A DNA stretch of 60,680 nucleotides, filler included, from Hausera hauseri (Eukaryota), in the NCBI GenBank assembly GCA_046269625.1. It is 12 parts of 12 records of this genome, joined end to end, with 100 filler letters (N's around TTAATTAATTAA, not from the genome) between each part and the next. Parts side by side here need not be neighbours in the genome. Positions count along the whole stretch, not along the records: positions 8,853 to 13,327 come from JBJURY010563339.1; 11 more parts are not named here. One strand, given 5' to 3'. The stretch's first letter is position 1. Each line of letters opens with the position of its first letter. The position numbers were made by a program, and so were the translations under genes. The notes under the pieces are model-generated. The model had not been told where the DNA came from, made no database searches, and was given only the letters and a program-made list of their open reading frames with translations. Of this stretch, positions 1-53,329 are shown piece after piece.

Positions 1-3000
1 TCCGCGTCGCTGAACACTGTTATGACTGGTTCTGTCTCTGATGAGAATAATAAGCTATTGTTTTTCGTAGTTTTGAGATATTTGATAATTCTTTTAACGG
101 CTTTCCAGTCCTTTTCACGAGGTTTTTCACATCTTCTGCTAAGTATATGTGTAGATGCAGCAATGTCAGGTCTTGTAAATGTAGAAATGTAAAGTAATGA
201 TCCAATAGCCTGTCTATATTTTCCATTTGATGGCAAAATATTTCCTTCTCCTGGAAGGTTATGGTAATTTGTTTCCATCGGCGTTGAAACTGGTTTTGCA
301 TCTTCTAATGAAAATTGTTTGATAAGTTGATCTATTTTATTTTGTTGGGATAACAAATAACTTCCATCGGACATCCTGGCAATTTCGATCCCTAAGAAAA
401 GTTTTGCTTCTCCAAGGTCTGAAATTTGATAGGTTTGTTTAATATTTTTAATAAATTTACGAATAGTTTCATCCTTTTCTGCGCTTATCAAAATATCATC
501 TACGTAAATAATGAGATGGATTAAGTCCGAATGTTCTTGTTTGGTGAATAGACAAGGATCTGATTTACTTTGTTTAAATTTCATATTTTCTAAGGTTTTC
601 TTTATTTCGTTGTTCCAGCATGTCGCTGCTTGTTTTAAGCCATATATTGATTTCTTTAATTTACAAACCTTTTCTTCCTGACCTTTTTCTTCAAATCCTT
701 CGGGCTGAATCATGAAAATTTCTTCTTCTAATTTTCCATACAAAAATGCTGTTTTTATATCTATGTGATGGACTTTATGCTTCCTGTATGCCGCACATGC
801 CAAGAAAGTCCTGATCGTTGTATGTTTCACGACTGGTGAGAAAGTTTCATCATAATCGATCCCATATCTTTGAGTAAATCCTTTGGCAACTAATCTGGCT
901 TTGTTTCTAATTTCTTCACCTTTTGCGTTATATTTTGTTTTGAAAATCCATTTATTCTTTACTGCGTGTTTACCCTTAGGTAGGTCAACTAAATCCCATG
1001 TGTCGTTTTCTTTTAGAGAATTCATTTCTTCTTTCATAGCAGCTATCCATTTTCGTTGTTGGAAACTCGGCAATTCCTGTACATCCGAAAAGGTTTCTGG
1101 ATCTTGATTCTTGAAATTATTTTCAACTTCTGCTTTGTATGACCAGCGGTTTGGAGGTATTCCTTTTGTCGATCTTGTAGATCGTTTCAGAATTTTTACC
1201 TTCTCCATTTTTTCGATCTGGCCTTTAGATACTGGGTTTTCTGTTTCTTCTGGAACATCGTTATTTTCTAATTTTATTTCTTTCTCAGGAGTATCTTCTG
1301 GATTTTCTTCAGTAAAGTTTTCATTTTCATTATGTTGATGAGGACGTATAATTTGAACTTCAGCGTTTCCGTTATTTTCCAAAAACTTAACGGTTCTGCA
1401 AATTTTAATTTTATCATCAGGAACCAGAATTCTGTATCCTGTACTTTTCGTGTCATACCCCATGAATATTCCTTCAATTGCAGTATTATCTAGTTTTCCT
1501 CTCTTTGATTTATGAATGTAAGCAAAGGCTTTGCATCCAAATACACGTAAATGTGAGAGAGTAGGTTTTCTTTTATTCCACATTTCATATGGAGTTTTAT
1601 TATGACACTTTGTGGGGACTCGATTTTGTATGTAATTTGCTGTTAATATTGCTTCTGCCCAATATTTATGAGCTAAACCGGAATCACTTAAGAGACATCT
1701 TGTCATTTCAACAAGTGTTCTATTTTTACGTTCACTAACACCATTTTGCGCAGGGCAATGGGGTACAGTTAGTTTATGTTGAATTCCGTGTTTTAAGAAA
1801 TATTCTTCTAACTCCTTATTTATATATTCCCCTCCATTGTCGCTTTTAATTATTTTGACTTTTCTCTTGAATTTATTGTTTGTGAGTGCAACGAATTGTT
1901 TTAATTTTGAAGTTACTTCATTTTTTCTCTTCATCAAATAAATCATAGTGAATCTGCTATAATCGTCCACGAAAGTCACGAAATATAAATTTCCACTGAC
2001 TGACGGTGTTTGAAAAGGTCCGCATACATCTGTATGAACAAGATCAAGCGGTTTCGATGATCTATATTCAGATTCTTTGTTATATGGAAAATCGCTTAAT
2101 TTACTTTTTATACATTGTGTGCATGTGTCGTTATGATTACAATTATCCAGATTTATTCCATCTGCGAGCTCTTTATTTTTAAGTTGTTTAATTGACTCAA
2201 TATTTCTATGACCTAGGCGTCTGTGCCAAAGTTGAATGCAATTTTTATTTTTACATTGAAAAGCTAAATTTACTGACGGTTCATCTTGGTCAATTGGTTT
2301 AATTTCGTAGAGGCTATTTGCATCACATTCTAAAACAGTTCTGTTGTCTTTTGCGATCTTACATTTATTCCCTTCAAAAAGAACTGAGAGACCTTTTTCT
2401 GTTATTTTCTTTACAGAGATTAAATTTGTTTTTAATTCAGGTACGAATAATACATCTGATAATATAACTTGTGCGATTTCTTTGTTTGGATTTAGAGTAT
2501 CAAAACGAACTGTACCTATTCCAGTAGTGCTTAATTTTGATCCGTTAGCTATAATTATATTTGAAGGATTTTTAGTTTTAAATTCAGAGAAATATTTCAT
2601 ACTGTTTACTAAATGATTACTGCAGCCACTATCAATAATGAAAGAATTTGTTTGTTGTTCCACTTCGTTGCTAGACAACGCAATTTGTTGCTCATTTTTA
2701 CTCACGGAGCCATTTTCGCATTTTTCAAGAGATACCTTTTCTGTTTTCACTTTATTCGTTGCTAGGTTACACGCGTTTCTGTTCTGGTTAGATTTAGAAT
2801 TTATAATGGCTTTATTATTATTATCATATGATGATATTTTATGATTAATGCGACCATATACCTTTTGTTTTGGCTTAGAGTTTAAATAAAAACACTCAGA
2901 CCTATTGTGATTATTTCGATGACAATAGGTACAATATTTTTCTTTCTTAGGTCTGTCTCGGAATAAAGCTTTAAATGCTTTTGATTCTGAGGAGTTATTT

Positions 3001-3557
3001 TCATTTTTCTTGTTAAATTCATCAATTAATTTACCTTTAATAAATTCGGGGGTTAATTCAATTTCTGGTCTTGCTTCGAGAGCGGTTATTAACGTATCAT
3101 AAGATCTCGGCAAGGAGCACAAAAGTAGGGCTGAAATATGATCATCTTTTATATTTTCACCTATTGCCTTTAATTTATCTATTAATTCAAATAATACATT
3201 TAAGTGGTTTTGCATGTCGCCATTTTCATCTAACTTTAAACTATAGAGTTTTCGTAAAAGAAACAGTTTACTTGACAAATTTGACCTTTCATGTACCTGC
3301 CTTAATTTTTCCCAAGTAGCTTTAGCTGATACTTCATATTTTACATGAATTATTTGATTATCTTCAATAAATAAATTTATCATTGCACGACACTGTCGAT
3401 CTTTTTTATTCCATTTTTCTGTTAATGGATTTGGAGGTTCATCTTCGATTACATCGTAAAGATCTTCCTTAATTAATAACATTTGCATTTTAAATTTCCA
3501 GGTCGAATAGTTACTTGAATTTAGTTTAACTATTTGTGACTGGTTTGACAGCATCAT
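1..3557 (-). CDS. Copia gag-pol polyprotein (gag, protease, integrase, RT); runs off the contig start and continues at 4577
   Basis: Manual translation from ATG 3557: MMLSNQSQIVKLNSSNYSTWKFKMQMLL; knuckle CTYCHRNNHNRSEC (2892-2933); protease FIIDSGCSNH (~2630); LWHRRLGH; integrase VHTDVCGP, SDNGGEY, QNGVSERKNRTL; RT YVDD (495-506). Missing from the ORF track because it has no stop inside the window. Confidence 0.93.
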   Translation of the reverse strand, partial: MMLSNQSQIVKLNSSNYSTWKFKMQMLLIKEDLYDVIEDEPPNPLTEKWNKKDRQCRAMINLFIEDNQIIHVKYEVSAKATWEKLRQVHERSNLSSKLFLLRKLYSLKLDENGDMQNHLNVLFELIDKLKAIGENIKDDHISALLLCSLPRSYDTLITALEARPEIELTPEFIKGKLIDEFNKKNENNSSESKAFKALFRDRPKKEKYCTYCHRNNHNRSECFYLNSKPKQKVYGRINHKISSYDNNNKAIINSKSNQNRNACNLATNKVKTEKVSLEKCENGSVSKNEQQIALSSNEVEQQTNSFIIDSGCSNHLVNSMKYFSEFKTKNPSNIIIANGSKLSTTGIGTVRFDTLNPNKEIAQVILSDVLFVPELKTNLISVKKITEKGLSVLFEGNKCKIAKDNRTVLECDANSLYEIKPIDQDEPSVNLAFQCKNKNCIQLWHRRLGHRNIESIKQLKNKELADGINLDNCNHNDTCTQCIKSKLSDFPYNKESEYRSSKPLDLVHTDVCGPFQTPSVSGNLYFVTFVDDYSRFTMIYLMKRKNEVTSKLKQFVALTNNKFKRKVKIIKSDNGGEYINKELEEYFLKHGIQHKLTVPHCPAQNGVSERKNRTLVEMTRCLLSDSGLAHKYWAEAILTANYIQNRVPTKCHNKTPYEMWNKRKPTLSHLRVFGCKAFAYIHKSKRGKLDNTAIEGIFMGYDTKSTGYRILVPDDKIKICRTVKFLENNGNAEVQIIRPHQHNENENFTEENPEDTPEKEIKLENNDVPEETENPVSKGQIEKMEKVKILKRSTRSTKGIPPNRWSYKAEVENNFKNQDPETFSDVQELPSFQQRKWIAAMKEEMNSLKENDTWDLVDLPKGKHAVKNKWIFKTKYNAKGEEIRNKARLVAKGFTQRYGIDYDETFSPVVKHTTIRTFLACAAYRKHKVHHIDIKTAFLYGKLEEEIFMIQPEGFEEKGQEEKVCKLKKSIYGLKQAATCWNNEIKKTLENMKFKQSKSDPCLFTKQEHSDLIHLIIYVDDILISAEKDETIRKFIKNIKQTYQISDLGEAKLFLGIEIARMSDGSYLLSQQNKIDQLIKQFSLEDAKPVSTPMETNYHNLPGEGNILPSNGKYRQAIGSLLYISTFTRPDIAASTHILSRRCEKPREKDWKAVKRIIKYLKTTKNNSLLFSSETEPVITVFSDA

Positions 3558-3709
3558 TTTTCAAGATAACTTTATTTATTTTAGCACTTGTATTGAATTA
3601 AAGAAAATTCTTAATACAGTTCTATCAAAATATCTTAAATAGATTCAATTATAACATAAAATAGGATAGCAAATATTTTCAGTTTCATAACATTCGTTTA
3701 AAAGCAAAC

Positions 3710-3724
3710 TCAGTCTCATAATCT
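3710..3724 (-). promoter_or_regulatory. Primer-binding site complementary to the elongator tRNA-Met anticodon arm (half-tRNA type)
   Basis: Minus-strand AGATTATGAGACTGA starts 1 nt after the LTR end. The plus strand TCAGTCTCATAATCT matches the anticodon stem-loop of eukaryotic elongator tRNA-Met(CAT). Confidence 0.75.
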
Positions 3725-3725
3725 T

Positions 3726-4114
3726 TGTTGGAGGGGTGTATTTTGATTTTGTAATTTATTATTATCGGTAGCTTCAGTATATTTAATCAGGATAAAAACC
3801 AAAAAAGAACTTTTAGGTGTTACATAAGTAGAGTTTGCAGGAAACACTGAAAAGAGTCAAATACTAACCAAAACGTTTTATATATATATTTGTGCATACA
3901 TAGCAATATAATTGAAGAAATAAATCATACATACATATCATCTAAGCGAAGAAAATCGCTGATTTTTATTTCTTCATCACAATTTACCAAACGACATTTT
4001 TGCTTCACATTTTTGGAGAGAGTTTATTAAGGTGTTGCCACACCTTTTTGAAAAAAAGAGGTTGATGTTTTTAGAGCGAAAAGGTTATTGAAATTTGAGG
4101 CGTTGAAGCTAACA
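3726..4114 (-). repeat. Copia LTR (389 bp, TGTTAG...CCAACA)
   Basis: TG...CA ends with an imperfect terminal inverted repeat, flanked by the PPT on one side and the PBS on the other. Confidence 0.85.
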
Positions 4115-4654
4115 TTCCCCCGGTTTCGCGAGAGAAACTTCAACAAGGTTTATGCCTTGTCGGCAGAATTCGAATTTAGCTTTTGGTAATGGCTTCGTCA
4201 TGATGTCGCCTAACATATCTTCACTCGGCTGGTACACTAATTTTATTATATTTTTGCTGTGTAGATCACGAACATGGTGATGCTTTGTATCAATGTGCTT
4301 TGTACGAGTGCTGTATTTTTCAGATTCTCCCAATTTTATTGTTGACTGGTTGTCTTCAAATACTTTTATTGGTAGGCTTTGTTTTAAATTTAACTCTTCA
4401 ACAAGTTTTAACAACCATGATAATTCCTGTAAAGATTGTGATAGGGCAACATATTCTGCTTCAGCTGATGATAAAGACACGCATGTTTGTTTCTTTGATG
4501 ACCATGTTATACAACTATCACCTAGAAAAATTAGGTTTCCTGAGGTTGATTTTCTATCATGTTTGTCTTGTGCCCAATCCGCGTCGCTGAACACTGTTAT
4601 GACTGGTTCTGTCTCTGATGAGAATAATAAGCTATTGTTTTTCGTAGTTTTGAG
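4109..4654 (-). CDS. C-terminal RNase H part of the same copia polyprotein
   Basis: FSDADWA..DRKSTSG...SSAEAEYVAL...EDNQS...KHID.KHH. In frame with 1-3557 across the 77-nt overlap; the joined ORF is 4026 nt (1341 aa). Confidence 0.93.
   Translation of the reverse strand, partial: LKTTKNNSLLFSSETEPVITVFSDADWAQDKHDRKSTSGNLIFLGDSCITWSSKKQTCVSLSSAEAEYVALSQSLQELSWLLKLVEELNLKQSLPIKVFEDNQSTIKLGESEKYSTRTKHIDTKHHHVRDLHSKNIIKLVYQPSEDMLGDIMTKPLPKAKFEFCRQGINLVEVSLAKPGEC
4115..4126 (-). promoter_or_regulatory. Polypurine tract
   Basis: AAACCGGGGGAA immediately precedes the LTR start TGTTAG. Confidence 0.7.
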
Positions 4655-4754: not shown

Positions 4755-7700
4755 ACACCAGAAATCGATCCATTCACACCTACTGAGGAAAAGGAATCAA
4801 CAGATTCGGTTAATGAAATCAACGAGATTTGTCCACTTCCTATTAGTGAGGAAGAAACGGAAGATATTGGTGATTTTGATCCAAAGAAATGGAAAGTTCG
4901 ACGTTCGTGGAAAAACGCCAATGAGTTAAAGAAAATGATAATTAGGTGTCACGACCCAGAAATACTACAGCGAAATTTAGAAAGGCTTAAACAGATTAGC
5001 GAACAAGTAGATATAACCGGAAAAGAACAACAGTATGCTGAGAGGTTATATAAAAGTCTAAAATTATGCAGCGAAGGAAAACTCGATGAAGCAATCAACC
5101 TGGACAACCCGAAGAGGTATCCACTGAGACGATGTCAAAATGGAAGCAAGAATTAAAATCATGGATTAAAAGTGGAGTCGAATTTTCCGAAGGATGGAGC
5201 AGAAACGAAGACAGCGTCGAAGTAAAAGTCACTAAAGCTCAGACGCTATTGTCTACTTTAGAAGCAAACCCAAAATTGAAGAGAATAGTACGCAATCTAG
5301 AGCGCACGATGGATGAAATTCGTTATGCAATGATTAATCGGCTTAGAGAAAAAACAGTTAGTAATCGAAGTAATATCGATTTAGAAATATTGGGTATAGA
5401 CCCAAAAGATATTCTTCCCTTGATGAAGATAATAAAAATCGCATTTGCTGTACCCAAACAATATACAAACCTAGAAAATCGAATCAAAATAGAAAATGTA
5501 AAGCGAGCACAGATTTATAGCTTGAGAAACCGAATTATTTTCCCAAATCACGAGTAGACTCAATACGTAGTAAAGGCTTGTATCATAGAATTGGACGAAT
5601 ATAAGGACGAGTTTAGTTATGTCAGCTGGATTATGAACTTCATAAAAGGGTCAGATGATGAGTTAAAAGGTGCATATAAAATGCTAGATAAGGCTATAAT
5701 CGCAAAGCCAATAATCGCCAACCAATTGTCAGAATGATCCGAATTAGTAACTCGACTAAGTAAATTAGTGGAAAACCGTAGGAAAGAATTTCCAGAAAGC
5801 GAGCCTTCTATAAAAAAACAGTTAGAAGAAAGTTCATGTAACCTAGACACAATAAAGACGGAGATAGATATCCGAATTCAATTTGAAGCATTACGACGAC
5901 TAAAATTTATGAAGAAGAAACAAGAAGCGACGATACTGGAAGAGATTTATAAAATGGTCGAAGAGACAAACTTTACAGAAAAGTGAAATATGACTTGCAA
6001 TTTTTACCAAAGATTGAAAAATGTCAGACTAGAAGAAGTCCAACATTTAACAGATAAACATATCTATGAGATCTCCGCCCAAGATATTGAAACACTAGAT
6101 ATTTGTCCGAAATATCAAGTCGCTTTGACGGACGCAATAAAATTTTTGCATAAAGCACAAGACTGGATGGCCGGATCAGGTCGGAATTTTTATACCGAGT
6201 TGACAAAGATAAGAGATGACCAACATCTTAGTTTTCAGGAAAATAGGTTCGTAAAGAAATTGTTGAATGCAATGGATCCCCACACAAAAGTCATAAATGA
6301 AATGTATGGGTTGGCAAACTTATTGGTAGAAATGGCAGAGATTAATGATGAGAATATGAGGCAATTGATGCCCAAATTACAGCAAGTAGAAGAAACGTGC
6401 ATCAGAACAAAACAAAGAGCAACAAGATTAGATGAACTAACAAAAGAGCTTGAAAGATACCGGAATAAATACGCCTTTACGGAATCAGATATCAAAAATA
6501 AGCAAGAATTTGTACAAAGATGGCAAAGGGATGTGATTATTGAACTAATAGATTATCACCAAAAAGGACTCATCAATTCTAATTAATTAGGCGAATTACT
6601 GAAAATGATTCAGTATTTCTGTGAAAACAGAATAGGTTTCCGAACTACGCAGATGAAAAAAATACAACCAAGATTGAAAGAGATTAGAGAAAATGTGCAA
6701 AGAACAAATACAGCCTTAGTGGGCTATGGACTTCCAGATGTTGGGAATGAACCGGAATGGTATGCGTATTTAGATGCGATGACGGCAGAGAAGCCCGTGA
6801 CTCCAGTACAGCTAAATGAGATAGAAACATGTCCGCAGAACAGGAGGTTTAATGTGGAGATGCTCCTGGATTCAGAGCTAACTGAAAAAGATTTAATCGA
6901 ACTAATTAACGTAAATATTACTGAAGGTAAGTTAAGGCAACTTATTCCTACATTAACTAAATTATCTAGTGAGAATACGATTTACAGCACGATGCCAAAA
7001 CTTTTGATAAGAGAATACTCTAAAATATTGAGGGCTAAACCTGAAGTAGGGATAAAAGTAATGGTATCGTCCGAGTGGATAGACGAAAAAGAATGTGAAT
7101 TAACTACATATTCCTATGTGAGAGACGTAAGAGAATGGTTATTAAACAATGGCGGAACGAATGAGCTAAATTATAGATTTTATTTCAGAGGAAGGATACT
7201 TGATGGTTTAGAACAATTAATAGATGTCGGGATTATACCCGATAAAACAAATCGAATAGTAGTAATAACAGCCAATGAACAAACTAAAAAAGAAACCGCG
7301 AGTAAGGCTAAAACAGAACAATGCGTAGGACAAATTATGGGTGTTCGAGACGCTGCAATATTTTTTGAGTATTTGCAAACGGGCGAAGATAAGGAACAAT
7401 ACGATATAAATTTAGTACCACTGAGTGAAATAACAACAAAAGGCCCAAGGCCGAAACGCACAGTTGGTAGGCCTAAAAAGACGCGAGAAGAAGTCGATTA
7501 CAATGGAGAATTGATCAGAGAACTAAGACAGATGTCGATTCCGACTTTCAGTACAAACAATGAGGAATTAAGCGAGTTAATGAAGAATTTAATACAAATT
7601 GTAAATTATTTAAGCCTTCGAGGTGATATATTAAATGATAAAGAAAAGATAATATTCGATGCAGCTAGAATGATGAGAAGTTAACGTTTTAAACTATCGA

Positions 7701-7993
7701 AAAGTAACTTAACGGATGAATCGGTAATCGAGATGATCATGGTAGAAAACACCAATGAAGAATTGAGAAAAGTATTACTATACTTAGCAATTAAAATAAA
7801 CCCTAATCGGGAGAATTAAATTAATAGGGCTATAAGCTTAGCGCAAAAAGCGGCAAGAAGACTGCTCTGCAAAGTAAATTGGTCAAAACTGTTTGACAAG
7901 GAAGAAGACAGACGGACTAGTAATAAACTTGACAACATGTTACGTAATTTAACAACGGCGGATGTTGGCTATCGGAAAAATGAATCAAACTGA
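4755..7993 (+). pseudogene. Large accessory protein (ORF X) of an env-bearing Ty3/gypsy element, copy A
   Basis: Track ORFs at 5132, 5768, 5990, 6605 and 8093 share one frame, broken only by point stops, plus one frameshift near 5120. Colinear with 56587-59830 (-). Contains a ubiquitin-like segment at 7052-7270. Confidence 0.8.
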
Positions 7994-8752
7994 TTAATTA
8001 GCCTACTGACCTTGATGATGCTAATAAAGCACATAAGCGCTGTTACCGTTAACGACTGAGATAAGTTTAAACTAGGGCAGAGATATTCCCTAATGGATCT
8101 GGAAGTGTGCGAAGATGCCAGACCACACAATTTGGAAACAAGAGAAAAAAATTACTTCCTGTACCAACAACAAGAACTGATATCGTTAAATGGAACGGAA
8201 TGCATGCTGAGACGATTGCGAAGCATTTTTTACTGTGGGCTAATACACGGACATTCCTCTATAATCAAGCCAACAACTCCGCTAATCCCAATGAACTTAG
8301 AACGCCAACACTGCAAACAACTTATGGAGACTTGAAGGATACAATGGACTGTATGCAATTAGAAATGCAACCGGGAGAGATGATTAGGGCATACAAAGTA
8401 GTGGTTGGAAGGTTAGATATGCATTGCGGACATTGTTACGGAGCTGAATACGACACCGGAAAAGGATTGCAAGCAAATGTGGTAGTCGTGGATTTCTACG
8501 AATCGGAGATGCGACCACAGAAAATAATGTTCCATAGTATCACTAAGTTATATACTGAGAATCATAAATGTCATTTACAAGACGGAACCTATGCTTTTAG
8601 AAGTTCTGTTATAATATGGGTACCTCCCTCTGGAAGAAGTTGCAATTTTATTAAAATTAAGGAACTGAAGTTTAATTAAACGACCGGAAAGCGATACGTG
8701 GATAGATTGGATACAAACTCAAGGACATGCGAAGACGTATCGGAACACTCTA
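7994..8752 (+). pseudogene. Chuvirus-like (class III) fusion glycoprotein N-terminal part, copy A
   Basis: Hydrophobic signal LISLLTLMMLI, then (Y/N)D(C/stop)...YSLMDLEVC...LYQQ...ECMLRR..IFYCGLIHGHSS. Frameshift near 8330; truncated by the contig end. Confidence 0.75.
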
Positions 8753-8852: not shown

Positions 8853-10300
8853 TCCGGTAGGTAGTATCGTGAGATTTCCTCAATTCGCCGACTGAGTCTA
8901 CATGTCCGGTTGTTTTCTCGCCCTTTTAAATTCGTGACAGCTTTATGGCCGGTAACAATAATGATTTTCTGCCCGTATACCTATACGTTAAAGTATCGTA
9001 GTGCTTCTTTTACAGCTAATGTTTTTAATTTTGTAACGGAATAAGTCTTCTTGGCTTTTTTTAACGAACGTCCTCCATATACAATTGATTGTTCCATTTC
9101 TTCATTTTCTCGCTTCTGATCTATTTGATATCCAATAACTTCTTTACCGACATCCGTCTTAATTATGAATGGCAAGTTAAACTCCGGGTATCATAAAATT
9201 GGTTCGCTTATTAAGATCTTTATTTCGTCGAAGGCTTTCTGTTCTATATCCGTCCTTTTCCATTTAATTCCTTTATTAAGTAAAAGATACAACAATGAAT
9301 TTACTTTTCAGTTGTCTGCTATATAAGTGGCGTATTATCCGCATAAACCTAGCTAGTGTCGTAACTCTTTCTGATTTTGTGCCTCCATGCAATCTGATAT
9401 TTTAGTCAGCAATGATTTATCTCGTTTTATCCTCCTTTTCCAACTATATGGCCAAGGTAGGGTACTGCGTTTTGAGCCAATATACATTTCTTGGAGTTTA
9501 GCTTTTATCCTGCTTGTTCTAATAGCATCAGTGTATCTTCGATATCCCTTAAATATTCTTCTGTTTTGAAGCTATCACTACGCCATCTAAGTATGCAAAT
9601 GCATGATCTAGTACCATCAGTATTTTATTCAACATTCTTGTAAAAACGGCTGGTCCGGTAGTAATATCAAACGGCATAGCATTAAGCTCATAAACAACAT
9701 CGGGCGTTTTTAACGCTGTTTTATTGCATTCTTCATCATTCATTTCTACTTGCCACTGTCCGGATTGTAAATCCCGAGTAATAATCCATTTTGCTCCAGA
9801 GAGCCTATCTAGAGCTTCTTTCACTGATGGCAGTGGGAAAGAATCTTTCATCATCAGATTATTCAATTCTCTATAATTAATGCAAAATCTGTGTTTTGCG
9901 CTACCTTTCTTTTTAACCCTAAGGATTGGCTTTTATTGACCCAATCTCTATTAGTTTTAGTGCTTGCAAGTCCATTGCTACGTTTGGTAGTCTTTTCAAT
10001 AGATCGCAGCCTAGAACTACATCGTCGGTTAATTGTTCCATAATTGCAAATTTGTGACGAAAAACTGTCCAACTGTGTGAACTTCTGTGTTCCATATAAA
10101 CATCGGTTTCAACATTTGGTCAAAGATTTCTGTGCTACCGGGATACTTCGTTGATGGTGGATACAACTATCCTCTTAACGTTTGAGAAATTGAATCATTT
10201 TTGATGCAAGACATCTTAGAACCTGTGTCGATTAGGGCGTAAACTTCCTAGTTTTCGATAGTGACTTTGGTGAAGGGTTTTCCTTATATTACCGTTTTGT
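8853..10300 (-). pseudogene. Ty3/gypsy pol (protease, RT, RNase H), decayed, copy B
   Basis: VYALIDTGSKMSCI (DTG at 10221-10229); RT DSFPLPSVKEALDRLSGAKW...MPF...FAYLDG; RNase H PFIIKTD...IVYGGRSL...YSVTKL.TLAV. Confidence 0.9.
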
Positions 10301-10949
10301 AACAATTGGTTGCCGCTATTTGGCGCTTAGTTGCCAATATTTTGTGACGGCTCATTCTGATTTTTGTGGAGGATACTATTTTTTCAGACCGTTATCTTAG
10401 TTCTCCATTTGAATATAGTATATTGTTCTCTATGTTTGATTCTAGATTTGTACTTCATTACCACTGATTAATGGTTTTTAATCATTCACATGTGGCTCTA
10501 TACTTGAAAAGTTTGTAACCTTTGATTTTCCACACGGGTTGTCTGGTTTCTATATTTCGATGTTCTCTATGGGAATATGACATTCTAGGATCGTCCGTAG
10601 GCTGTAGATAAAACATTCTTCGTAGGTATACGTAATGTTTCGTACCTTCGTAAGGGTCCGCCAGACTAATCGTTCTCTTATAGATTTATGTTTGATACGA
10701 ACCCATCGATTGCTTATCACAGTCTTCGTAGACGGTAGGGGAAGGGAGTAACATGGGCAATGCTGCCTTTATGATGGAATATGCATGATGTGTATCTATT
10801 TTAGAGAGGGCTTCTCCTCTCATAGGCTTCTCATCATATGAAATATTCATTAGCTTTTTGGGTTCGAGAAGCTTTCACATGTACAAAAATATATGTTTCC
10901 TTTTTCGTTTGCGATCGCGATAGTCGACGTGACATTCTACAATTATTTT

Positions 10950-12713
10950 CCATCTGCTTTCTTCATATGGCTTTAAAAACCTTTCGAAAGGTGTTATGAT
11001 CGCAATCAAGATTTTTCATGAGAATCTTGTCAACGTAGATATTTCGTATTCGTTAAATACTGCTTGGATTACTGTCTTCATTAGTTGTATTAAGAAATAT
11101 ATCGCTAGAAATGCGGATGCGGCTTGTCCAAGAATTAGAAATCTTCCACAAATTTTGTATAAGATTTCCGTGGTCACTCGTTGTTAATTGTTTGCACCGA
11201 GCAAAGAGTCCCATGGTATCGAGTATCGTCCACTACTGAGACAATGGCTCGGTTCAATTCATGTGTTCGTTGCAGCGGAAAAGCGAGATATTTTCAAAAG
11301 TCTTCGGTTTTTTTGACCCATATATACTTTCGATGAGATATTCTGGAATTTACCATTTGTAATTCCACTTACGAGATTAGTTCCTGTAAATTTAATTAGT
11401 GCTTCCATTTGGCAGGATTAACCAATCCGTTTCGCTATTTCTAAACATTGATTTTCCTAAACTTGCTTTACTTTCTGTAAGGATTGTTTGCTGAGTCGCA
11501 TTATCTAACAATACTCTAGTAAGTGGCATAACTAAATGAGGCATATTCTGGTATATAACTGCAAGTTCTTGTATGCACCTTTTTTCTTCGACATTGATTG
11601 ATACATCTCATTTTTCACATTCGTAAGTCAACAAGGCTGCACCAGTAACTCGACCGAAAATTCCTTTTGTCATGGAAATTATTAGTGATGCTAACTCCGG
11701 ATTTGAATAAATCAGCGCCAATTTTGTCCTCATGATTTCCGTCGCTTTTTTCATCTTGTGGTATAGTTCGGCTACCCTAACTTGTCCCTTGTAGTAAAAA
11801 TAGTCGTCTCGATTTTTCAAGTAATCCTATATTCGTTTGTTTTCGCACTTATTTCCGTTTGCTCGACTAAAACTCTTCGTAATTAGAGGCAAACATCACT
11901 CCTTCACAACGGGATGTTTTAATAAATGTTATTCCATGAGGGTCGGAGATTAACGTAGTAGGTGTAGAGTGTTCTGTTACATCTTCCCGTGTTTTCTTGT
12001 TGCTGTCAAACTTATTCATATATCGCTTAGCTGTAGTCTCATTGAATTTTAATTCCTTAATTTTAATAAAGTTAAAGTTCCTTTCAGATGGAGGTTCCCA
12101 TATTATAACAAAACTTCTGAAAGCACATATTCCATCCCGTAAATGACATCTTTCATTTTTGATATACAGTTTCGTGACGCTATAAAATATCATGTTCTGT
12201 GCTCGCATGTCCGTTTCGTAGAAATGCACGACTACTATGTTTGCTTCCATTCCTTTACCGATGTCATATTCTGCTCTAATACAGTTTCTGTTATGCATGT
12301 CTAGTCTTACGACCGCTACTTTATATGTTCTAATTATTTTTTCTTGTAGTATTTCAAGTTCTATACCGTCCTCTTGTATGCTTCCTGTTTCCTTAGCCTG
12401 CTTTTAATTATTTCGTTCTACATTCATCGAGATTAAGGGAATGTTTGGTTTGATTAGAGATGAATGTTAACGTGTCAATACTGCAGGACTGTCGTAACAT
12501 GCATCCCATTCCGTCTAATGGTACTAATTTTTGTTGTAGGTATGTGGAGTAGATTTTCTCTTTTGTCTCCAGTTTGTGTGGTCTGGTGTCTTTACACCAC
12601 TCTAAGTCCATCAAGAGGTATTTCTGTCCAAGTTTCAATTTATCGCAGTCATAGACTTTAACGGCACCTATCCGTTTTACTAACATCATCAGGGCAAGCA
12701 ACTGATTTGCCAA
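10950..12713 (-). pseudogene. Near full-length chuvirus-like fusion glycoprotein (env), decayed, copy B
   Basis: Signal + VYDCD N-terminus; GRVTGAALLTYEC..V......CIQELAVIYQN...VMPLTRVL core; C-terminal hydrophobic FLILGQAASAFLAIYFLIQLMKTVIQAVF and KILIAIITPF segments. Confidence 0.78.
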
Positions 12714-13170
12714 TTAGATTCGTTTCTTCGGTTATTATTATTTGTTTTGGTCAGATTTCGTACCATGTCTTCGAGTCTAAAACTATTACTGGACCGTTTG
12801 TCTTGTTCTTTCTCGAATAATTTTGACTAGTATACTTCTCGAGGCTATCTTCTAGCGGTTCTCCATGCCAAACTCGTAGCTTTGTTAAATTAACTGTCTC
12901 TATTGGGATTTCTTTTGATCGCTAAGTACATCAGTACTTTTCTTAGTTCTTATTTTGTGTCTTCTTTCATGATATTTTTATTATCAAATCGTCTGTTAGG
13001 TAAAGATGATAATTTCTTATTATTTTAGTTGTGTTAAATATTGCTTTCGCTTTATCGTGTAATATATTGCCATGGAGGCTTGAACAATTTACGATATGTA
13101 TTAATTTTTTTATTAACTCACTCAATTCTTCGTTTCTTCACTGAAAGTAGAAATTGTCATCTCACTTAAT
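12714..13170 (-). pseudogene. C-terminal part of accessory ORF X, copy B
   Basis: ELSEMTISTFS..NEELSELIKKLIHIVN.SSLHGNILHDKAKAIF aligns with ELRQMSIPTFSTNNEELSELMKNLIQIVNYLSLRGDILNDKEKIIF of copy A. It ends RRNESNW. Confidence 0.75.
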
Positions 13171-14239
13171 TCTCAAAACCAATTGTCAAAATATTTGGTT
13201 TTGACAATAAAAACACAAAAATCATAAATATACAAACAGTTATTAAACTGATTACATTGACGATTAAGCCCAGCACACATTTTTATTATTCAGTAAGCCA
13301 TGCATTAAAAAAATTTCACAGGGTGTGNNNNNNNNNNNNNNNNNNNNNNNNNNNNNNNNNNNNNNNNNNNNTTAATTAATTAANNNNNNNNNNNNNNNNN
13401 NNNNNNNNNNNNNNNNNNNNNNNNNNNTTTTGCACTTGTGTATATTTTAAATTTACGGTTTAGTTTAAATATTTCATTTGTGATTTTTTGGTCAATCCGA
13501 ACATCGTCAATATTTCAATATATTATTTGCTGCCATGATTTTCTTGAATTTTGTTTGGCAATGTCAATTTGTAAATTTTAAGTCAATTCGATTTTTATTG
13601 TGTTTGTCACATTTTATCAATTCAGCAATTTCAGATCATTTTTGGTGGTGACTCGATTTCTTAAAAACAATCAACTTGTGATTTTGCGTTTTAATTTCGT
13701 TGTAACTGAAAATAATTTCGTTATTTGTTTACAAAAAAATAATTTGTTTAAATGTTGTACAGATTTAAAATTTTTGGAAATAAAATTTTGAAATTGATTT
13801 CTGCCATTTTTCAATGAATCCTGCCATTTTGATTTTGTTTGCAATTTGAGAATTGTCGTTTCACTTATAGCAGTTTTCAACCGATTTATTTCAAGGATCT
13901 TGGTGCGTCTTTTTGAATAAGTTGTGGTTTCGACAATTGCGATTTTGAAGACATTTGTTCGGACATTCTGATTTTATATTTTGATCGTTTGACCAGTCAA
14001 AAGTTAGACATCTATTTATATCGTTTTAAAATCTATTTTAGTTATTGATTGTTAATTCCATAATTTAGTCATTTCAGTCATTTTTAATTATTCCTATCAT
14101 TTCGGATATCTTACAATTGCGGATTTTATCATATTGGTCGTTAGATTTCTCTAATTCTGAATTTTTGTCAGTTGACATTTTCACGTCTTTATTATGATTT
14201 TATCGTCGACTTGTTGCATTGTTACAAATAACAATCGGT

Positions 14240-15950
14240 ACATGCCTTTTGGCTTGCAAAATTCTTTCAACGCCACAGAGATGCTATACTTTCTGATTTC
14301 CCATATGCTTATCCCTATATCGATGATATATTAATCGTTTCTTCTTCAACTTAACAACACGAAAAACACCTTAGATCAATTTTTAGCGTTTACACCAGTA
14401 TAATCTGCAAATTAATTTCCAAAATGTCACTTTTCCAGAAGCTTATAAACTTCCTTGGTAACAATCTTCCGAAGGCCACTCGCCTCAGCCCGATCGAGTT
14501 GAAGAGCTAAAAAACGTACAGCTACCTCAAACAACAACAGAAATGAGGAGCTTTTTAGGAACTTAACACTTCGTTCACAAGTATGTGCCGTACTGCTCTA
14601 AACTTACCGCACCATTTGCTCACCTCAGTGGTAGAAAATAACACCAGCCAATACAATGGAACCCTGAACTAGTAAACAAATTCGAAAAGCTAAGAGAAGG
14701 TTTAAAAACTGTCGAGATATTAGCTTTCCCCAAGCATGATGCACAGCTGATCCTCACTACAGACGTCTCCACCACCTCTGTGGGCGCCATACTTCATCAA
14801 ATCTATAATGGAAAGAACCAGCCTTTGGAGTATTTTTCACGCAAGTTAACACCTCCTGAAACTAGGTACTCAACGTTTGAATGAGAATTATTGGCTATCG
14901 TTATCACTTTAAAGCATTTCTCCCACCTACTTGTCGCTCGCCATTTTACCATACAGACCGATCACAAGCCCTTGCTAAATATCATGGCTATAAAACATCT
15001 TTCCTCATGCCAAGAACGACAGATATCATATTTGTCGACATTTAAATCTGACATAAAACATATTAACGGGCTTAGTAATTTGGTTGCCGATTTTTTATCT
15101 ACGACGGTTGGTTCGATTAATTTTTCACCAATCTTCTCTCAAGTACAACTTCAACAGAACTAGCCACCTCAGGACATGCTTAATTCTTTTAAGTCTTGTA
15201 CAACTGTTGACGGCGTAGCTTTAGACACTTCCAAACCAGGTCATTCCGTTATAATTCTCGCACCACCTTTACAACGGCAGGCGTTTAACAATGTACATGT
15301 GCTACACCACCCTGGCGCTAAAGCCACCTTTCGTACTAGTTTGGCCGTCACTGCGTTACGATGTGCAAACCTGGGTTAAGGAGTGCGTGGCCTGCCAAAA
15401 GTACAAAACAACTAAGCATTTTAAGCCACCACTATTCCACTTTCCATGCATATGGCGTTTTGAATCCATGCATGTTGACATCGTCGGCCCTCTTCCTCCG
15501 AACAACGGTTATTAATTCATTCTCACCATGGTGGACCGTTCCTCGCGATGGCCAGAAGCCATTCCTCTACGGAGTACAAATACCGATACCGTAGCTGACG
15601 TTTATATTCGTACATCAATTAGCAGGTTTAAATAACCTCGCTTCATCATCACGGATCTAGGTCCACAGTTTGAATCCAACGTGTTCAAATCCCTTATTAA
15701 CCGATTGGGAATCCAGCACATACATACTAGGCCTTACCATCCCCAATCGAATGGCCTTTTAGAAAGTTTCCACCGAACATGGAAAACGTCAGTAAGAATT
15801 CTTGCAGAGTCGAACACTAGTTGGACGAATCTTCTTCCGTTTTTTCTGCTTGGCTGGCGGAATACTCCGTCTACTTATGCAGGATGCTCACCCACTGAAG
15901 CCTTATTCGGAGCTCCTGTACGGTCATTATTCGAACTTACTGCCCTAGAC
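14240..15950 (+). pseudogene. CsRn1/Kabuki-like Ty3/gypsy pol fragment (RT C-terminus, RNase H, integrase)
   Basis: MPFGL, YPYIDDILI, LTTD.STTSVGA.LHQ, TDHKPL, HVDIVGPLP, RWPEAIPL, YHPQSNGLLE.FHRT; many frameshifts. Confidence 0.9.
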
Positions 15951-17155
15951 GATTGTTGTGTCCAACAAGGACTTGGCTGTCTAATCTGTCCAAATCTGTA
16001 TTTAAAACTGACTCTCTTACTTTTGAAATACTGTAGGTATACATCATCATAGATATTTGTCTAATCGAAAAATATCCATTGGGAGAGGAAAAAAGCTATA
16101 GACAACCAGCGTTATAAAATTTCAAATTTAAAAAAAGAATTGTATGATAGGATGTTTGAAAAATAACCTTCAATATCGAAAGAAATACCCAAACTAAATT
16201 TCCAAAATGGTTAACAAAACTTCAATTCAAAATGTTGAATAATTATTTATTATTAAAACAAGAAGAAATTTTTAAGACAATAGAATGTATTATTTGATAT
16301 CGATAATGTTGGATGGGTGGGTGGACTGCTACGATCATCAGTCAGATCAATGAACTGATTCTTTTTTATTGGAACTTCAAGGACATCATCATCATCATCA
16401 ACGAAATCCTGTTTGTTCTTTAATAATTTTGGTCTTTTCAAAATTTTATCATCCTTTATCGTTGTCTTAATTTTAATTGGTAGGTCAGGCAATTTCCTGG
16501 TGCCGATATATGTATCTTTCGCAGCAAAGGACACTATACATTTTTAAAACAAATGGATTTATTAAAATATCGTTCGAACAGCTCAATATCGCTGATAATT
16601 TTTGGCTACCAATCTTTTCCTCGGTTAATTTGAATTGCATAATCGCCGTTGGTAAAATGCATATCGGAAATTTAATCGTTCTGCAAAATTGCACTGTTTC
16701 ATTTACGCTTTCAAATCCAAGAAGTTTTGAAAAAAAATTTATGCGGAACCGGATTAACTTTCTCAGAAACTTTGAAATTAACGTAAGCTTTATTGATAGC
16801 TTGAAAAGCATGAGTACGCACTTTATTGATAAAACGATGTATTAAACAACTAAACAGAAGTTCCGATTGTTTTAGTATGCAAAAGAACTGAACGCAATTT
16901 TTAAAATAAATCACACTCAAAATTCCTTTGCCAACTTAACAAATGGGGACTCGAACACATCTGTTTGAAAACTCTGAGCTTTGCTGACGATATCGTCATA
17001 AGTCAAGAGCATCATATCACTGAGAAATTCCGCTTCTTCAGCAAGTATTGCAATTTGGTCGATATGATATCTTTACTCTGGAACAGATTTTTGCTCATTT
17101 GTTAAAGCGGTGGAAGAAATGTATTATTTTCGACGTTCGCCGATTTGACTTCAAA

Positions 17156-20100
17156 TGTGTCAGATGAACTCGACGTAACTTCTTTCGAGGCGGAAGATTG
17201 GGCCTGCCTATGGTCCCGATGCGGTGAAAACGGACGCCCGGCCGTGTTCAACCAAATGGGTCAGAGGGCGCCGGGCACTGTGGGCATTACATCACCCCCT
17301 CCCAGGTCTAGAGGTTAAAACTATAAAAGAGCAAAATATACAGAAAAAAAACCGCAAAACGAAAAAGTATCTGTGTCAGTCGGTCTTACTGTGGACAAGA
17401 CATTTGGTGCCTTTTACTGATTTTCCCCTGCTATACTTGCTGAATGTGACTCTGCGTGTTTTGTTTTTTATACTATGTGTGTGCTTGCAGTGTTTGAATT
17501 TGGGGAAAAATTGTCAGATTTTGTTGTAAGTGTTGCATCGTACAAAGATGAGTCAGAGTAAAGAGAAGGAGAAAGCGAAGGAGGAAGAGAGATTGTTGAA
17601 GACGAAGGAATGATTAAAGGTGTAGTGACGATAAAGGAAAAGAGAAAGAAGTTGGAGTAGAAACCGAAATGAAATTGTGTGAAAGAGCAGAAGTGGAAGA
17701 TGAAACAGAGGTATTGGTAGAGAAAGAAAAAGACATGGGGATAGAAGTAAACAAAGGAGAAATTCGCGAAGTCGACGTGAAAGGGGCGGAAGACGATGTG
17801 TGAGGAGAAAGGGAAAAGAAAGCGCCGAAGATGAGGAAGGTGTAGAAACAGAAGGAGAGAGAAGACGGCGAAGAGGTACAAAACGCAAGACAGCAGAAAG
17901 ATGGAGAAGGCGAAGGAAACTAACTGAAAAGTGATGTGCAAGAGGTTGGAATGATGAAAGGTGTAGATGGAGAGATTGGTGAAGTCGAAGTGGTGTTTGA
18001 TGGAGAAAGTACTGCAAAAGGCAAAAGCAGGTTGTTATCAGGGGATGGAAGAGGTATTGGAAGGCTTGAAGGTGCAAAATCGGATGGGGAGAAAGAGGTT
18101 GAATTGTTAGAAGAAATTGAAGTGTAAGTTTTGGGAGAAAAGGTAGGAGAAATTGGATTAAGACATTGAGCAGAGATGGAAGGTGAATTGTAGGATTGCT
18201 GCGCGTCGTATGAAGAGGTTGGTGTAGAAGTGACTTCGATTGGAGACGTATCGTCGATGAAGAAATCCGGCTTAGCATTATTAATGTGAACGGTTACTTC
18301 TTTACCGTCTTTGAGAATACTGATGTTGTGGACGTATAATCGAATTACCTTGTAAGGGCCGACATACTGAGATTGAAAACCACACCGCGTCTGATTCTTT
18401 AGCCAAACGAACTTGGCAGTATATAAATCGTCGGATATGCAAGGTTTATTTGCGTGTAACAATCTGCAATATGAGTCTTTGCTGATCGCAATAAAGTGTC
18501 TCTGTACCGCTTGTATGGTTTCTTCTGTTGGAGTATTTTCCAGCTCAGTCAGCTTAATTAATTATCTGATGGCAGTGCCAAATAATGCTTCTGCAGATAA
18601 ACAGCCTGTAGAAGTAGATGGTGTGTTCCGCCAGCCAAGCAGAACGTACGGATGGAGTGTGGTCCAACTGCGATTGGACTCTGCAAGGATTTTAGGAGAC
18701 GTTTCCATCGTTCGGTGAAAGCGCTCGAGAAGGCCATTTGATTGGGGATGATATGGTGACGTTTGAATGTGGTTAATTCCCAATCGATTGACCAGTGCTT
18801 TAAACAGGTTGGATTCAAACTGTGGACCTTGGTTCGAAATGATGTGGCGAGATGATCAAAACCTGCTGATCCAAGTGCGGATTAAAACGTCTGCGATGGT
18901 TTCTGTGTTGGTGCTCCGAAGCGGGACGGCCTCTAAGCATAGCGACAAACGGTCCATCATTGTGAGGATGAACTGATGACCGTTGTTTAAGGGTACTGAG
19001 CCTACAAGATCAATGTGCACAGATTCGAAACGAGACGTGCTGGGAAAATGAAATAGTGGTGGCTTTAGGTGCTTAGTAACTTTGTATTTTTGGCATGCCA
19101 CAAACTGCGTAACTTATGGCTGCACGTCATAGCGCATCGACGGCCATACTATTTGGCGTTGTAAAAGCGAAAAGTGGCCTTGGCACCGGGATGATGCAAC
19201 GAATGAATGCTATTGAATGCTTCTTTTTGAAGCGATTCAGAAAGAATGATTTTGGGATTATTAGGTTTGGAGGTGTCAAAGGCCACACCGTCGATGGTTT
19301 CGTATGATGTAAAAGATTTAAGGATGTCAGGAGGTGGCTGGTTTTGCTGAAGTTTGGATTGAGGAAAAATTGGTGTAAAATCAATTGAGCTGACCGACCA
19401 GGACATAAAGTCCGCTACTAAATTGTCGACTCCGTTTAGATGCTTAATTACAAAATTAAATATTGACAAATGTGAAATGGATGCAGCTGTTATGGATGCG
19501 TCCGTGGTTAAGAAGTGTTCTGCATGGGAATTTGGATAGGCCAGGATTTCTACAGTTTTTAAATTGTCTTTGAGGTGATCGAAAGCATTGACTAGTTTGA
19601 CGGTCTATTGAATAGGCTGTTTCTTCCGGCCAGAGCTTAGTGATGCAAATGGAGCAGTTAGAGTAGAACAGTGAGGAACATAATTATGAATGAAGTGCGA
19701 GTTTCGAGAAAAAAACGCTTCTCTGTTCATGTACGTGGTAGCTGTATGTTTTTGAGCTGTGTGATGCGCTCCTGCTGAGGTGAATATCCGGAGGAGCTAA
19801 TAACATGTCCTAGGAAGTTGACCTTATGTTGAAAAAAGAGCATTTGGCGAAATTAATTTGCAAATTGTTTTGGTGCAAGCGCTGGAAGATTAGACGTAAG
19901 TGTTCAGAATGTTGTTTCGTGGAATATGAGGCAATTAGGATATTATCACTATAAGAATAAGCAAAGTTTAAACCTGATAGGACTGTATCTATATGCCTTT
20001 GGAAGGTTTGGGAAGCTCTAGGGAGTCCAAAAGCATAAAAAGGTACTCAAAAAAGCCAAAAAGTGTAATGACAACCGTTTTCAGAATGTCTTCTGGAGCC

Positions 20101-22507: not shown

Positions 22508-22641
22508 NNNNNNNNNNNNNNNNNNNNNNNNNNNNNNNNNNNNNNNNNNNNTTAATTAATTAANNNNNNNNNNNNNNNNNNNNNNNNNNNNNNNNNNNNN
22601 NNNNNNNACAACAACTAACTATATACAATGTTGTTATCGAG

Positions 22642-25600: not shown

Positions 25601-26588
25601 TTTTTAGCTTCAGGCCCAGAATCTTGGGACCTCAGAAATTACTGTTTTGTGTATGCAAATGTTAGCATATTCCTACAATACTGCTTTTATGCCTATGTAT
25701 TTTTTTGCAATAATTGTGAAACTATTTCATTAACCATTTATTTGCATTAATTGAAAAACTATGGTCGAGCAATTAATACATGGTTGAAAGCCCAAATTCA
25801 CCAACAAAATATAGGTAGCCTTCAGATCCAGGCCTCCCTTGAAAAAGAGATCTGTGATCTCATGGGATTAGTCTGGTTAAAAAATAGTAAAATAAATATC
25901 AGAATTACAACATGATATAAATTTGAGGACGATAGAAACGACAAAATAAAATATCTGTAAGTGAGATGTTACTGGTTCTGAAAGAAATATAGCTCTCACT
26001 CACCTCTCCTATGTGGAATGCAAACTTGGTAGCACATTTGTCTGAGGCATACTCGGTTCTGGCTCCGACATCCAGGCCTTTTAAGCTATCCAAGGCATTC
26101 ATCCACACGAAGTCAGTGTAGGGTCGGTGGTGTTTGGCCAAAGCATGAACTGTCCGGAATTTGAGACACATTCGTTCCAGCTTATCTTGGTTCATTTTTG
26201 CTAGCATCTGCTCTGCAGGGCTCCTCAATGGCGAGATCTCTGCTGCGTTCTCGGCGGCCTGCTCTCTACGGTGCCTCTCGCTGTGCTCGTGCTTAACTAC
26301 TGATGTTAATTGAAATGATTTTGAACCTACCGCAAAGCTGCATTTCGCATCTGCTTGACCATAGTTGTTGTCTCTGCACAAAGAGCAGAACATGAGGTCC
26401 TGCGCCTTATCGAATACAAGCCATGGCCGACCAGAGGCCCACGAAGTCCGATAATCTCTCTTCCTCCTATTTTTATCATATTCCATATCAGCCTTTCGTT
26501 TTTCCGCCTTACTTTGCTGGTTGTGAGAGGCTGTGGAGGGAACCTTCAGTTTCAGTGCCTCAAACATAGATATCTGTCGGTTCGCCAT
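22642..26588 (-). CDS. Spliced hAT-family transposase, ZNF862-like (TTF zinc finger, DUF4371, hAT dimerisation); probably lesioned in exon 5
   Basis: GT-AG exons: 26588-26004, 25426-24963, 24755-24596, 24300-24080, 23885-~23647, 23353-23230, 23011-22642. Motifs RPWLVFD..MFCSLC, VMDGSTD, GTDGAAVM, HCYAHRLELA, GTRWL, TIPATSAEAERGFSEMKLIKT..R.RL. Confidence 0.85.
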
Positions 26589-27013
26589 GATCTCGTCGCT
26601 TTCTCCGAACTACTTTAGTAAAGTTGTGAATTGTCGGCAACTAATAAACAAACTATCCGAAGCACGCGTTGTGCTCATCCGCGGAACTACTTGACAGCCT
26701 CGCCGAGTAAAGTTTGATGATTTCACTGTCAGTGAGGTACAGAAATTCAATATTTTCACTAATAGTAATCACATATAGCGAACTCTTTCTTTGCAAGCTT
26801 TAAAAAAAAACACTTTGAGCAAGTATTTGTATTCATGCGCATTGAGACGAGTTCGAACGGGCGGTGTTGTACTAAATTCAGTTCCCCTGTGTTGGGAGCG
26901 CCTCCCTCATGTTNNNNNNNNNNNNNNNNNNNNNNNNNNNNNNNNNNNNNNNNNNNNTTAATTAATTAANNNNNNNNNNNNNNNNNNNNNNNNNNNNNNN
27001 NNNNNNNNNNNNN

Positions 27014-48700: not shown

Positions 48701-48840
48701 GTTGTGACAAGGTGGTATTAGGTGCAGGATGTTCATGTTGAAGATGGTGTTGGCAGCTGTACTATCAGTAATAGGTTCCATGCAGTTAGCAATATCGTAT
48801 TTGTTGCCGTAATAAAAATATCTATATGAATGATTGTAAA
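45744..48840 (-). mobile_element. CsRn1/Kabuki-like Ty3/gypsy fragment (RT-RH-IN-tail), close relative of 17156-22507
   Basis: Colinear nucleotide similarity to ~17800-20750; YPYCDDILI; YHPQSNGLL; 5'-truncated before the protease. Confidence 0.9.
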
Positions 48841-53240: not shown

Positions 53241-53329
53241 GCAGGTTCATCCACAGTAATATGGGTGTTTTCTTAAGCATAATGAGCAGTTATATGAGCA
53301 GTATAATGAGCAGTTATATATTGTTTGGA

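Follow-up and report, generated by a model that had tools for sequence, protein, structure and literature searches.

The sequence analysed here (the window) is a 60,680-nucleotide stretch of DNA from the Hausera hauseri assembly GCA_046269625.1, in which 12 contigs, labelled K1 to K12, are joined with N-padded spacers between them. Three of these contigs bear pieces of Ty3/gypsy retroelements with an envelope glycoprotein gene (env): K2 (4755–8752, plus strand), K3 (8853–13327, minus strand) and K12 (55912–60680, minus strand). On K3, the order along the minus strand runs from the tail of a long accessory open reading frame (ORF), referred to as ORF X, through the glycoprotein to the protease (PR), reverse transcriptase (RT) and RNase H (RH). 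The features of the three contigs are listed below, with the evidence for each in brackets.

K2, plus strand
4755–7990: ORF X, mostly in a single frame (translation; ratio of nonsynonymous to synonymous substitution, dN/dS, against K12)
6884–7285: helical segment followed by a ubiquitin-like domain at 7040–7285 (Atlas, relatives' profile, tblastn)
7466–7477: GRPK motif, which we take to be AT-hook-like (also found ahead of env in relatives)
7499–7990: helical domain at the position of the Bcl-2 fold of relatives (alignment by position)
7991–7993: TGA at the ORF X/env junction (K2/K12 alignment)
7994–8752: N-terminal part of the glycoprotein, with one frameshift, truncated at the contig end (env profile; dN/dS)

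K3, minus strand
12714–13170: decayed C-terminal tail of ORF X (homology to K2 and K12)
10980–12713: glycoprotein of the Monjiviricetes/gB fusion type, full in extent and broken (env profile, PF24664)
near 11138–11082: predicted transmembrane helix of the glycoprotein (hydropathy)
10290–10979: linker between env and protease (about 230 codons), sharing the frame of the env tail and the protease (stop counts)
9952–10289: aspartic protease, DTG at 10229, spread over two frames (translation, Pfam, relatives)
9430–9932: Ty3/gypsy RT with a degenerate catalytic motif, lacking the N-terminal part (RVT_1, relatives)
8853–9429: connection and RNase H; the contig ends before the integrase (Pfam, relatives)

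K12, minus strand
60300–60680: end of gag, an R/N/D-rich low-complexity linker, with the capsid beyond the contig end (translation)
60219–60266: degenerate CCHC zinc knuckle of the gag nucleocapsid (Pfam and tblastn)
56590–60218: ORF X, an accessory region of about 1,200 codons with frameshifts and stops (translation, alignment)
56587–56589: TGA at the ORF X/env junction (K2/K12 alignment)
55912–56586: N-terminal third of the glycoprotein with a hydrophobic signal stretch, truncated at the contig end (PF24664, env profile, hydropathy)

Accessory region and envelope glycoprotein

The nucleotide identity between K2 and K12 was 80–81% over 3.6 kb, with a synonymous divergence (dS) of about 0.8, while K3 was 68.6% identical to either of them over 1.1–1.2 kb. 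The initial annotation had counted the three contigs as copies of one lineage, but because of this divergence and of the dN/dS values of ORF X and env, which point to selection in active lineages, they are by their sequence diverged subfamilies. All of the element copies carry stops and frameshifts, and those present in the window are dead, decayed pieces.

Over the 1,207 codons aligned between K2 and K12, differences at the three codon positions numbered 177/125/387, and the dN/dS of ORF X was 0.15 (976 codons), indicative of purifying selection. This codon-position bias and low ratio mark ORF X as a protein that was under selection in active lineages. The env of the same two contigs yielded a dN/dS of 0.09, likewise indicating purifying selection. 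On K3, homology to K2 and K12 begins near 13170, and the AT-rich DNA upstream is without match. The C-terminal part of ORF X is collinear with protein P0005 (query residues 586–1075, in one stretch) and with the metagenome locus L001. For the N-terminal stretch of about 600 residues, Pfam and the Atlas revealed no known family, and a single relative (P0004) was found, with 38% identity over about 150 amino acids (aa). A homologue search of longer proteins with the middle of ORF X returned none of 3,879 candidates, and PDB sequence searches with single window pieces gave nothing meaningful. Atlas leads for the N-terminal part (unnamed or dynein-helical) were rejected for low recognition (1136), and weak Pfam matches to BLOC1_2, Helicase_Sgs1, TAtT and Cas9_PI2 were set aside as chance.

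The knuckle preceding ORF X on K12 scored below the Pfam cut-off (zf-CCHC, E=0.024) and was matched by tblastn to P0005 (E=1.6e-4) and L001 (E=1.1e-4); R/N-rich linkers ahead of the knuckle were also seen, by eye, in P0009 and P0010. The earlier assignment of a gag knuckle, ORF X and glycoprotein to K12, and of ORF X and glycoprotein to K2, was thus borne out, with a knuckle that is degenerate and a glycoprotein recognised by PF24664 and the env profile.

Further towards env, the ubiquitin-like domain of K2 fell into ubiquitin/SUMO-like clusters of the Atlas (0.90–0.92) and matched a profile of four relatives (E=6e-13) as well as L001 by tblastn (E=4e-9). The window sequence itself has no Pfam match for this domain; L001 and P0005 have weak Pfam ubiquitin matches. 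The GRPK motif recurs ahead of env in P0005, P0006, P0009, P0015, P0021 and L001. In all four of the relatives examined (4/4), the domain just before env matched Bcl-2 in Pfam (best E=3e-5), and a model of this domain from L001 (predicted local distance difference test, pLDDT, 69) had only Bcl-2-family chains among the matches listed, mostly with probability 0.96–1.0 and E of 0.04–0.1. A model of the K2 stretch from ubiquitin to env reached a pLDDT of 30. A Bcl-2 fold is therefore supported for the relatives by sequence and model, and for the window copies its presence would follow from position. Taken together, the window fragments and the retrieved relatives suggest that a ubiquitin-like, AT-hook-like and Bcl-2-like cassette ahead of env is a conserved feature of the group.

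The env profile, built from eight relatives with the window copies left out, matched K3 at 12701–12477, 12469–11828, 11841–11407 and 11216–10992 in several frames, and these four pieces cover profile positions 10–615 of 651. The glycoprotein of K3, initially annotated as full, is full in extent, but its reading frame is broken by stops and frameshifts. PF24664 (Monjiviricetes_fusion) matched its C-terminal piece with E=5e-9 and, over positions 5–227 of the family, the env of K12 with E=2e-15 (Pfam). Hydropathy revealed hydrophobic stretches at the start and near the end of env, and env is accordingly a predicted class III (gB/Monjiviricetes-like) fusion protein with a signal stretch and a transmembrane helix.

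Pol downstream of env

On K3, a protease motif (DTG) begins at 10229, where the Pfam match to RVP is weak (E=0.02), and is followed by RVT_1 at 9932–9552 (E=3e-14) and RT_RNaseH at about 9250–8864 (E=1e-17 to 1e-19). Together with the env profile, these matches confirm that env lies upstream of PR-RT-RH on one contig and one strand (8853–13327), as had first been reported. A single frame takes in the env transmembrane region, the linker and the protease, from 11225 to 10030. Within the linker, which matches no known family, 6 of 240 codons are stops in the env/PR frame versus 18 and 15 in the other frames and an expectation of 16.7 (best of three frames, P=0.007 in 5,000 Markov shuffles; P=0.03 for stop scarcity in the narrower 10900–10300 stretch). 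An LTR (long terminal repeat) between env and pol, which the initial annotation had raised as a sign of a separate nested element, did not appear: a repeat search within K3 found no LTR-like repeat, and the linker is in frame and stop-poor.

From run X1, 3,588 contigs were placed on K3 at a likeness of at least 80%. One of these links 10948 (env tail) to 10267 (protease), diverged contigs overlap across much of the linker, and overlapping exact pieces support most of it. Differences by codon position among the X1 contigs, examined by hand, were uninformative; the protease, which is known to be coding, was likewise unbiased.

When ORF X of K2, together with the start of env, served as query in a full HMMER scan, 17 proteins matched, 16 of which contain PF24664. 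A protease follows env in the same ORF in 7 of these 16, in 3 of them together with RT, RH and integrase (IN), and none of the 16 has RT ahead of env; all RT-bearing relatives have pol downstream. The possibility raised earlier, that full-length copies carry their own pol upstream of the glycoprotein, thus finds no relative with RT before env. P0021 (a cluster mate) and L002 provide further ORFs from env to IN, and a scan of metagenomes yielded at least two loci (L001 and L002). Both P0019 and L002 start with capsid and knuckle, L002 being a single frame of 2,693 codons with capsid, knuckle, env, PR, RT, RH and IN. Among viral contigs no relative was found for the ORF X, RT or env alignment, and among genome contigs none either. 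The gag-env-pol order is therefore present as env-pol on K3 and as knuckle-env on K12, and as a whole on one molecule only in P0019 and L002. Because env, PR, RT, RH and IN share a single ORF in intact relatives, and gag comes first in two of these, the stitched order of gag, ORF X, env and pol is, as far as sequence can tell, sound. The window pieces and the intact relatives thereby uphold one Ty3/gypsy lineage whose gag and pol are separated by accessory and env sequence, and the interval, first put at about 5 kb, does exist but is nearer 6 kb.

In the relatives P0006, P0008, P0009, P0015 and P0021, repeated aspartic-protease-like domains were seen between env and RT, with up to 6 such stretches in P0021, some of them past the integrase. 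P0006, P0007, P0021 and L002 have a long extension after the integrase that resembles a second membrane protein.

The K3 RT was 40–45% identical to five RTs of the env-first group versus 25–32% to five other gypsy rows of the window, figures that are anchored on P0006 and so favour relatives of P0006. RT trees, which were small, with K1 absent and K4p omitted from the second for having too few RT columns, split K3 and the env-first pols at 100/100 from the pols of K4, K6 and K10, used as outgroups. An RT homologue search returned 1 uninformative match among 155 candidates. The outgroup pols of K4 (13428–22507), K6 (27014–31813) and K10 (45744–49695) are related, decayed gypsy pols, 64–85% alike, with two copies in opposite orientation on K4. 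K9 (41466–45643) is a decayed gypsy with knuckle, RT, RNase H and integrase pieces; its RT falls near the env-first clade in these small trees, and the contig has no match to the env profile.

It is highly probable, in our judgement, that the three contigs are decayed pieces of Burro-like Ty3/gypsy elements, whose GAG-ENV-POL type has been published and whose host is likely a flatworm. In these elements a gB/chuvirus-type env precedes PR-RT-RH, and an accessory region of about 1,200 codons with a ubiquitin-like domain follows the gag knuckle. The order, frame continuity, selection and hydrophobic stretches are observed, and the processing of the polyprotein and the action of its cargo may be pictured as follows. 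In active ancestors, one long frame would be translated as Gag-accessory-Env-Pol. With the hydrophobic stretch at the beginning of env serving as an internal signal peptide, the ectodomain would enter the lumen of the endoplasmic reticulum. Cleavage at this internal signal peptide would separate env from Gag-accessory, and the env transmembrane helix would bring the chain back to the cytosol with PR-RT-RH-IN still on the env tail. The element's own protease would then free Pol from the cytoplasmic tail of env, an arrangement that would keep the enzymes at the membrane where budding takes place. The accessory cargo, which is ubiquitin-like and possibly also Bcl-2-like, might modulate protein turnover and cell death in the host.

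The likely host is a flatworm that lacks closely related sequenced species, provided that the contigs share one organism, because the named homologues of a zinc-finger gene on K7 are flatworm proteins. This possible host gene, a long C2H2 zinc-finger frame at 32336-36385 identified by its homologues, has 13 of them, and all of the named ones (9/9) are from flatworms, with 32–41% identity over the longer matches. The K7 frame contains three in-frame stops and may be a pseudogene or contain short introns that keep the frame.

The junction stop codon and alternative readings

Besides the anchoring of the RT identities on P0006, a number of observations weigh against the Burro-like reading. No one contig spans gag through pol, and the capsid, integrase, LTRs and primer-binding site fall outside K2, K3 and K12. 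Placement of the K3 RT in a Ty3/gypsy tree, a check proposed in the initial annotation, separated it from K4, K6 and K10, but the grouping with env-first pols is weak (69/56 in the small RT tree), and the enclosing clade also includes K9 and P0036, neither of which is known to carry env. Run X1 contains exact K3 pieces and may be the source of K3, so that it gives no independent check of the assembly, and its joint between env and protease is a single contig at 80% likeness. For the helical domains ahead of env in the window, 56 and 13 of 500 shuffles were as good against the Bcl-2/relatives' profile, and hhalign gave no match there. The flatworm assignment comes from K7, a contig other than those bearing the element. 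Finally, the stop that K2 and K12 have in common before env misfits a plain single ORF.

This stop is the TGA at the ORF X/env junction, the only one in common among the 18 in-frame stops of the K2/K12 alignment (1,207 codons). At L001:61-4266, an ORF of 999 aa with gag knuckle, ubiquitin and Bcl-2-like domains is followed by a TGA and then by env in frame, and this TGA is the only stop in about 1,400 codons, making L001 the cleanest instance of a candidate programmed stop. Given that env past the stop has diverged under selection, two accounts offer themselves: the two copies acquired the stop separately once inserted, or env was expressed despite it. In the latter case, the K2/K12 branch would have two ORFs, with Gag-accessory ending at a programmed TGA and a scarcer Env-Pol produced either when ribosomes read through the stop or from a spliced or subgenomic RNA, a refinement of the Burro-like explanation and not its replacement, which we regard as possible though doubtful. 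It is favoured by the low dN/dS (0.09) of env downstream of this one common stop, by the position of the L001 stop at the same junction, by the hydrophobic signal stretch that begins directly after the stop, and by 4 of the 16 env matches that start no more than 23 residues from the mature-env motif, these being known as protein only and not as DNA. However, a Trp codon could have mutated independently twice, given that about 1 in 13 Trp codons has become a stop per copy, and the chance is roughly 8% for some common site and below 1% for the junction site, which was picked post hoc. Moreover, at least nine relatives read across the junction without a stop, the sequence 3′ of the stop varies and holds no stimulatory RNA structure (z –0.4 to +0.8), while K3 is frameshifted at the junction and uninformative. 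A programmed stop and an anti-apoptotic Burro were also looked for in the literature, where nothing relevant was found, a weak negative in that subscription papers fall mostly outside the coverage. Tentatively, then, a single leaky UGA before the env signal peptide might set the ratio of Gag to Env-Pol in a compact Burro-like branch.

It is improbable that the pol at 8853–10300 belongs to an unrelated gypsy, nested behind the env element or adjacent to it by chance. The linker does have almost no homology to those of the relatives (only the last ~35 codons before PR match, to P0021), the protease abuts RT with about 200 aa absent that the relatives have between them, and tree support for the K3 RT is weak. 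Against this, the linker is stop-poor and in frame, K3 is free of repeats, the C-terminus of its protease matches P0006 (E=0.003) as no other window protease does, the residues preceding the RT catalytic aspartates resemble those of env-first relatives, and pol lies downstream in every RT-bearing relative of this env. Because the shared frame, the lack of a repeat, the X1 joint, the order in relatives and the RT likeness together speak against a nested foreign pol, the K3 pol is very likely the own pol of the env-bearing element.

Hardly credible, finally, is a stand-alone endogenous chuvirus-like gene or a BEL/Pao part that has gypsy pieces as neighbours or through misassembly: PF24664 is a family of negative-strand viruses, and glycoproteins of this kind are known from BEL/Pao elements (cited in a passage of PMC13524379), but ORF X and env are paired under joint selection in three diverged subfamilies, the K3 RT matches gypsy-type pols, overlapping exact X1 pieces support most of the assembly of the K3 linker, and intact gag-env-pol ORFs in relatives largely refute it.

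Comparison with known elements

The order of env before pol, put forward as potentially novel, has already been published, both for Burro (PMC6431247) and for GAG-ENV-POL elements (PMC13524379), and these are also exceptions to the premise that env normally lies 3′ of pol. The planarian LTR retrotransposons known as Burro (or GYPSM1) are gypsy-like and of giant size (Arkhipova and Yushenova 2019, PMC6431247; citing Grohme 2018). In the layout described there, Ubi2/SUMO-like and BCL-2 domains precede, in that order, a mononegavirus-like env that lies between gag and pol and in frame with them. The initial annotation had named Burro as the comparison to be made before novelty is claimed, and the order indeed proves to be that of Burro (PMC6431247).

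Going by that description, the element shares with Burro the gag knuckle, the ubiquitin/SUMO-like domain (and BCL2-like in relatives) and a mononegavirus-like env before PR-RT-RH, and the likely flatworm host here compares with planarians for Burro. As to the single frame of Burro, env tail and PR are in one frame here, and ORF X and env are in one frame too but with the common stop in K2 and K12, which is a difference from Burro as described. In the same description, ORF1 of Burro measures 4,873–5,140 aa as opposed to about 1,200 aa for the accessory region here, and Burro carries MATH, BIR and ankyrin domains, none of which gave a Pfam match in any coding-strand frame of K2, K3 or K12. Burro is further described with a Bcl-2 domain, for which the pre-env domain of the window copies has no significant match, with a dUTPase-like interval between PR and RT that is absent in K3, and as an element of more than 25–30 kb with LTRs, whereas the contigs here are 4–5 kb. 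The element appears to work as Burro does and falls within the GAG-ENV-POL class, but since neither the MATH, BIR and ankyrin domains nor the giant ORF1 turned up when searched for, it is not to be classed as Burro in the strict sense.

GAG-ENV-POL Ty3/gypsy errantiviruses are reported from Platyhelminthes, Nematoda and Bryozoa, with six in Schmidtea (Chary and Hayashi, eLife 2026, PMC13524379). In the passages of that paper describing Smed_errantivirus_1-6, gene order, Ty3/gypsy pol and env class (HSV/gB-type ENV) are as here, and the cysteine spacing of the N-terminal half of env was, by eye, nearer the Platyhelminthes C1a rows than those of Bryozoa or Nematoda. The spans given for Smed_5 and Smed_6, about 17–18 kb with flanks, leave room for a similar accessory region. 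The words "polyprotein", "readthrough" and "frameshift" are absent from the text of PMC13524379, and the passages concerned describe no accessory domains between gag and env. The window copies are decayed, in which they differ from the Smed errantiviruses as compared by eye and description. The same paper cites Sacco et al. 2022 for non-canonical endogenous retroviruses of nematodes (PMC13524379), which, as cited there, resemble the present element in their flipped env and pol and in being metaviruses with an RNA-virus-type glycoprotein, and differ in having nematode hosts versus a likely flatworm here. BEL/Pao elements with env have a BEL/Pao pol and carry env 3′ of integrase, whereas here RT and RNase H are gypsy-type and lie 3′ of env. 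The nematode endogenous retroviruses reportedly have a continuous ORF, and they are not known to carry ubiquitin/Bcl-2 cargo.

Other sequences were found on the remaining contigs. K1 (1-4654) contains a copia gag-pol frame of 1,186 codons without interruption (RVT_2, rve, gag), and its ends overlap by 77 identical bases, indicating either a young multi-copy element or a circularised assembly. K11 (49796–55811) carries a tandem array of about 3.4 kb, with a unit of about 68 bp, that adjoins a gypsy capsid region at 55750–55196; this region matches P0019 and L002 (E~1e-6 to 1e-7) and continues into an R/N/D-rich linker like that of K12. K11 has no nucleotide match to K12 and could represent a separate element family whose interior is filled with repeats. 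K5 (22608–26913) holds remnants of a hAT transposase (Dimer_Tnp_hAT, zf-C17orf113), and K8 (39767–41365) holds a host gene fragment with spectrin repeats.

While the gene order itself is known, the fragments widen the Burro design to include a lineage of more compact build, probably in an unsequenced flatworm. What they add is a longer accessory region under selection and a candidate programmed stop just ahead of env. For the question of how a membrane-spanning Gag-Env-Pol is processed and dosed, the junction stop offers a concrete test point. If the leaky UGA is real, one codon would ration both the fusion protein and the replication enzymes, and synthesis at Gag levels would extend to the unusually long accessory region under selection, in which about 600 aa of no known family precede the ubiquitin-like domain and the degenerate domain at the Bcl-2 position.

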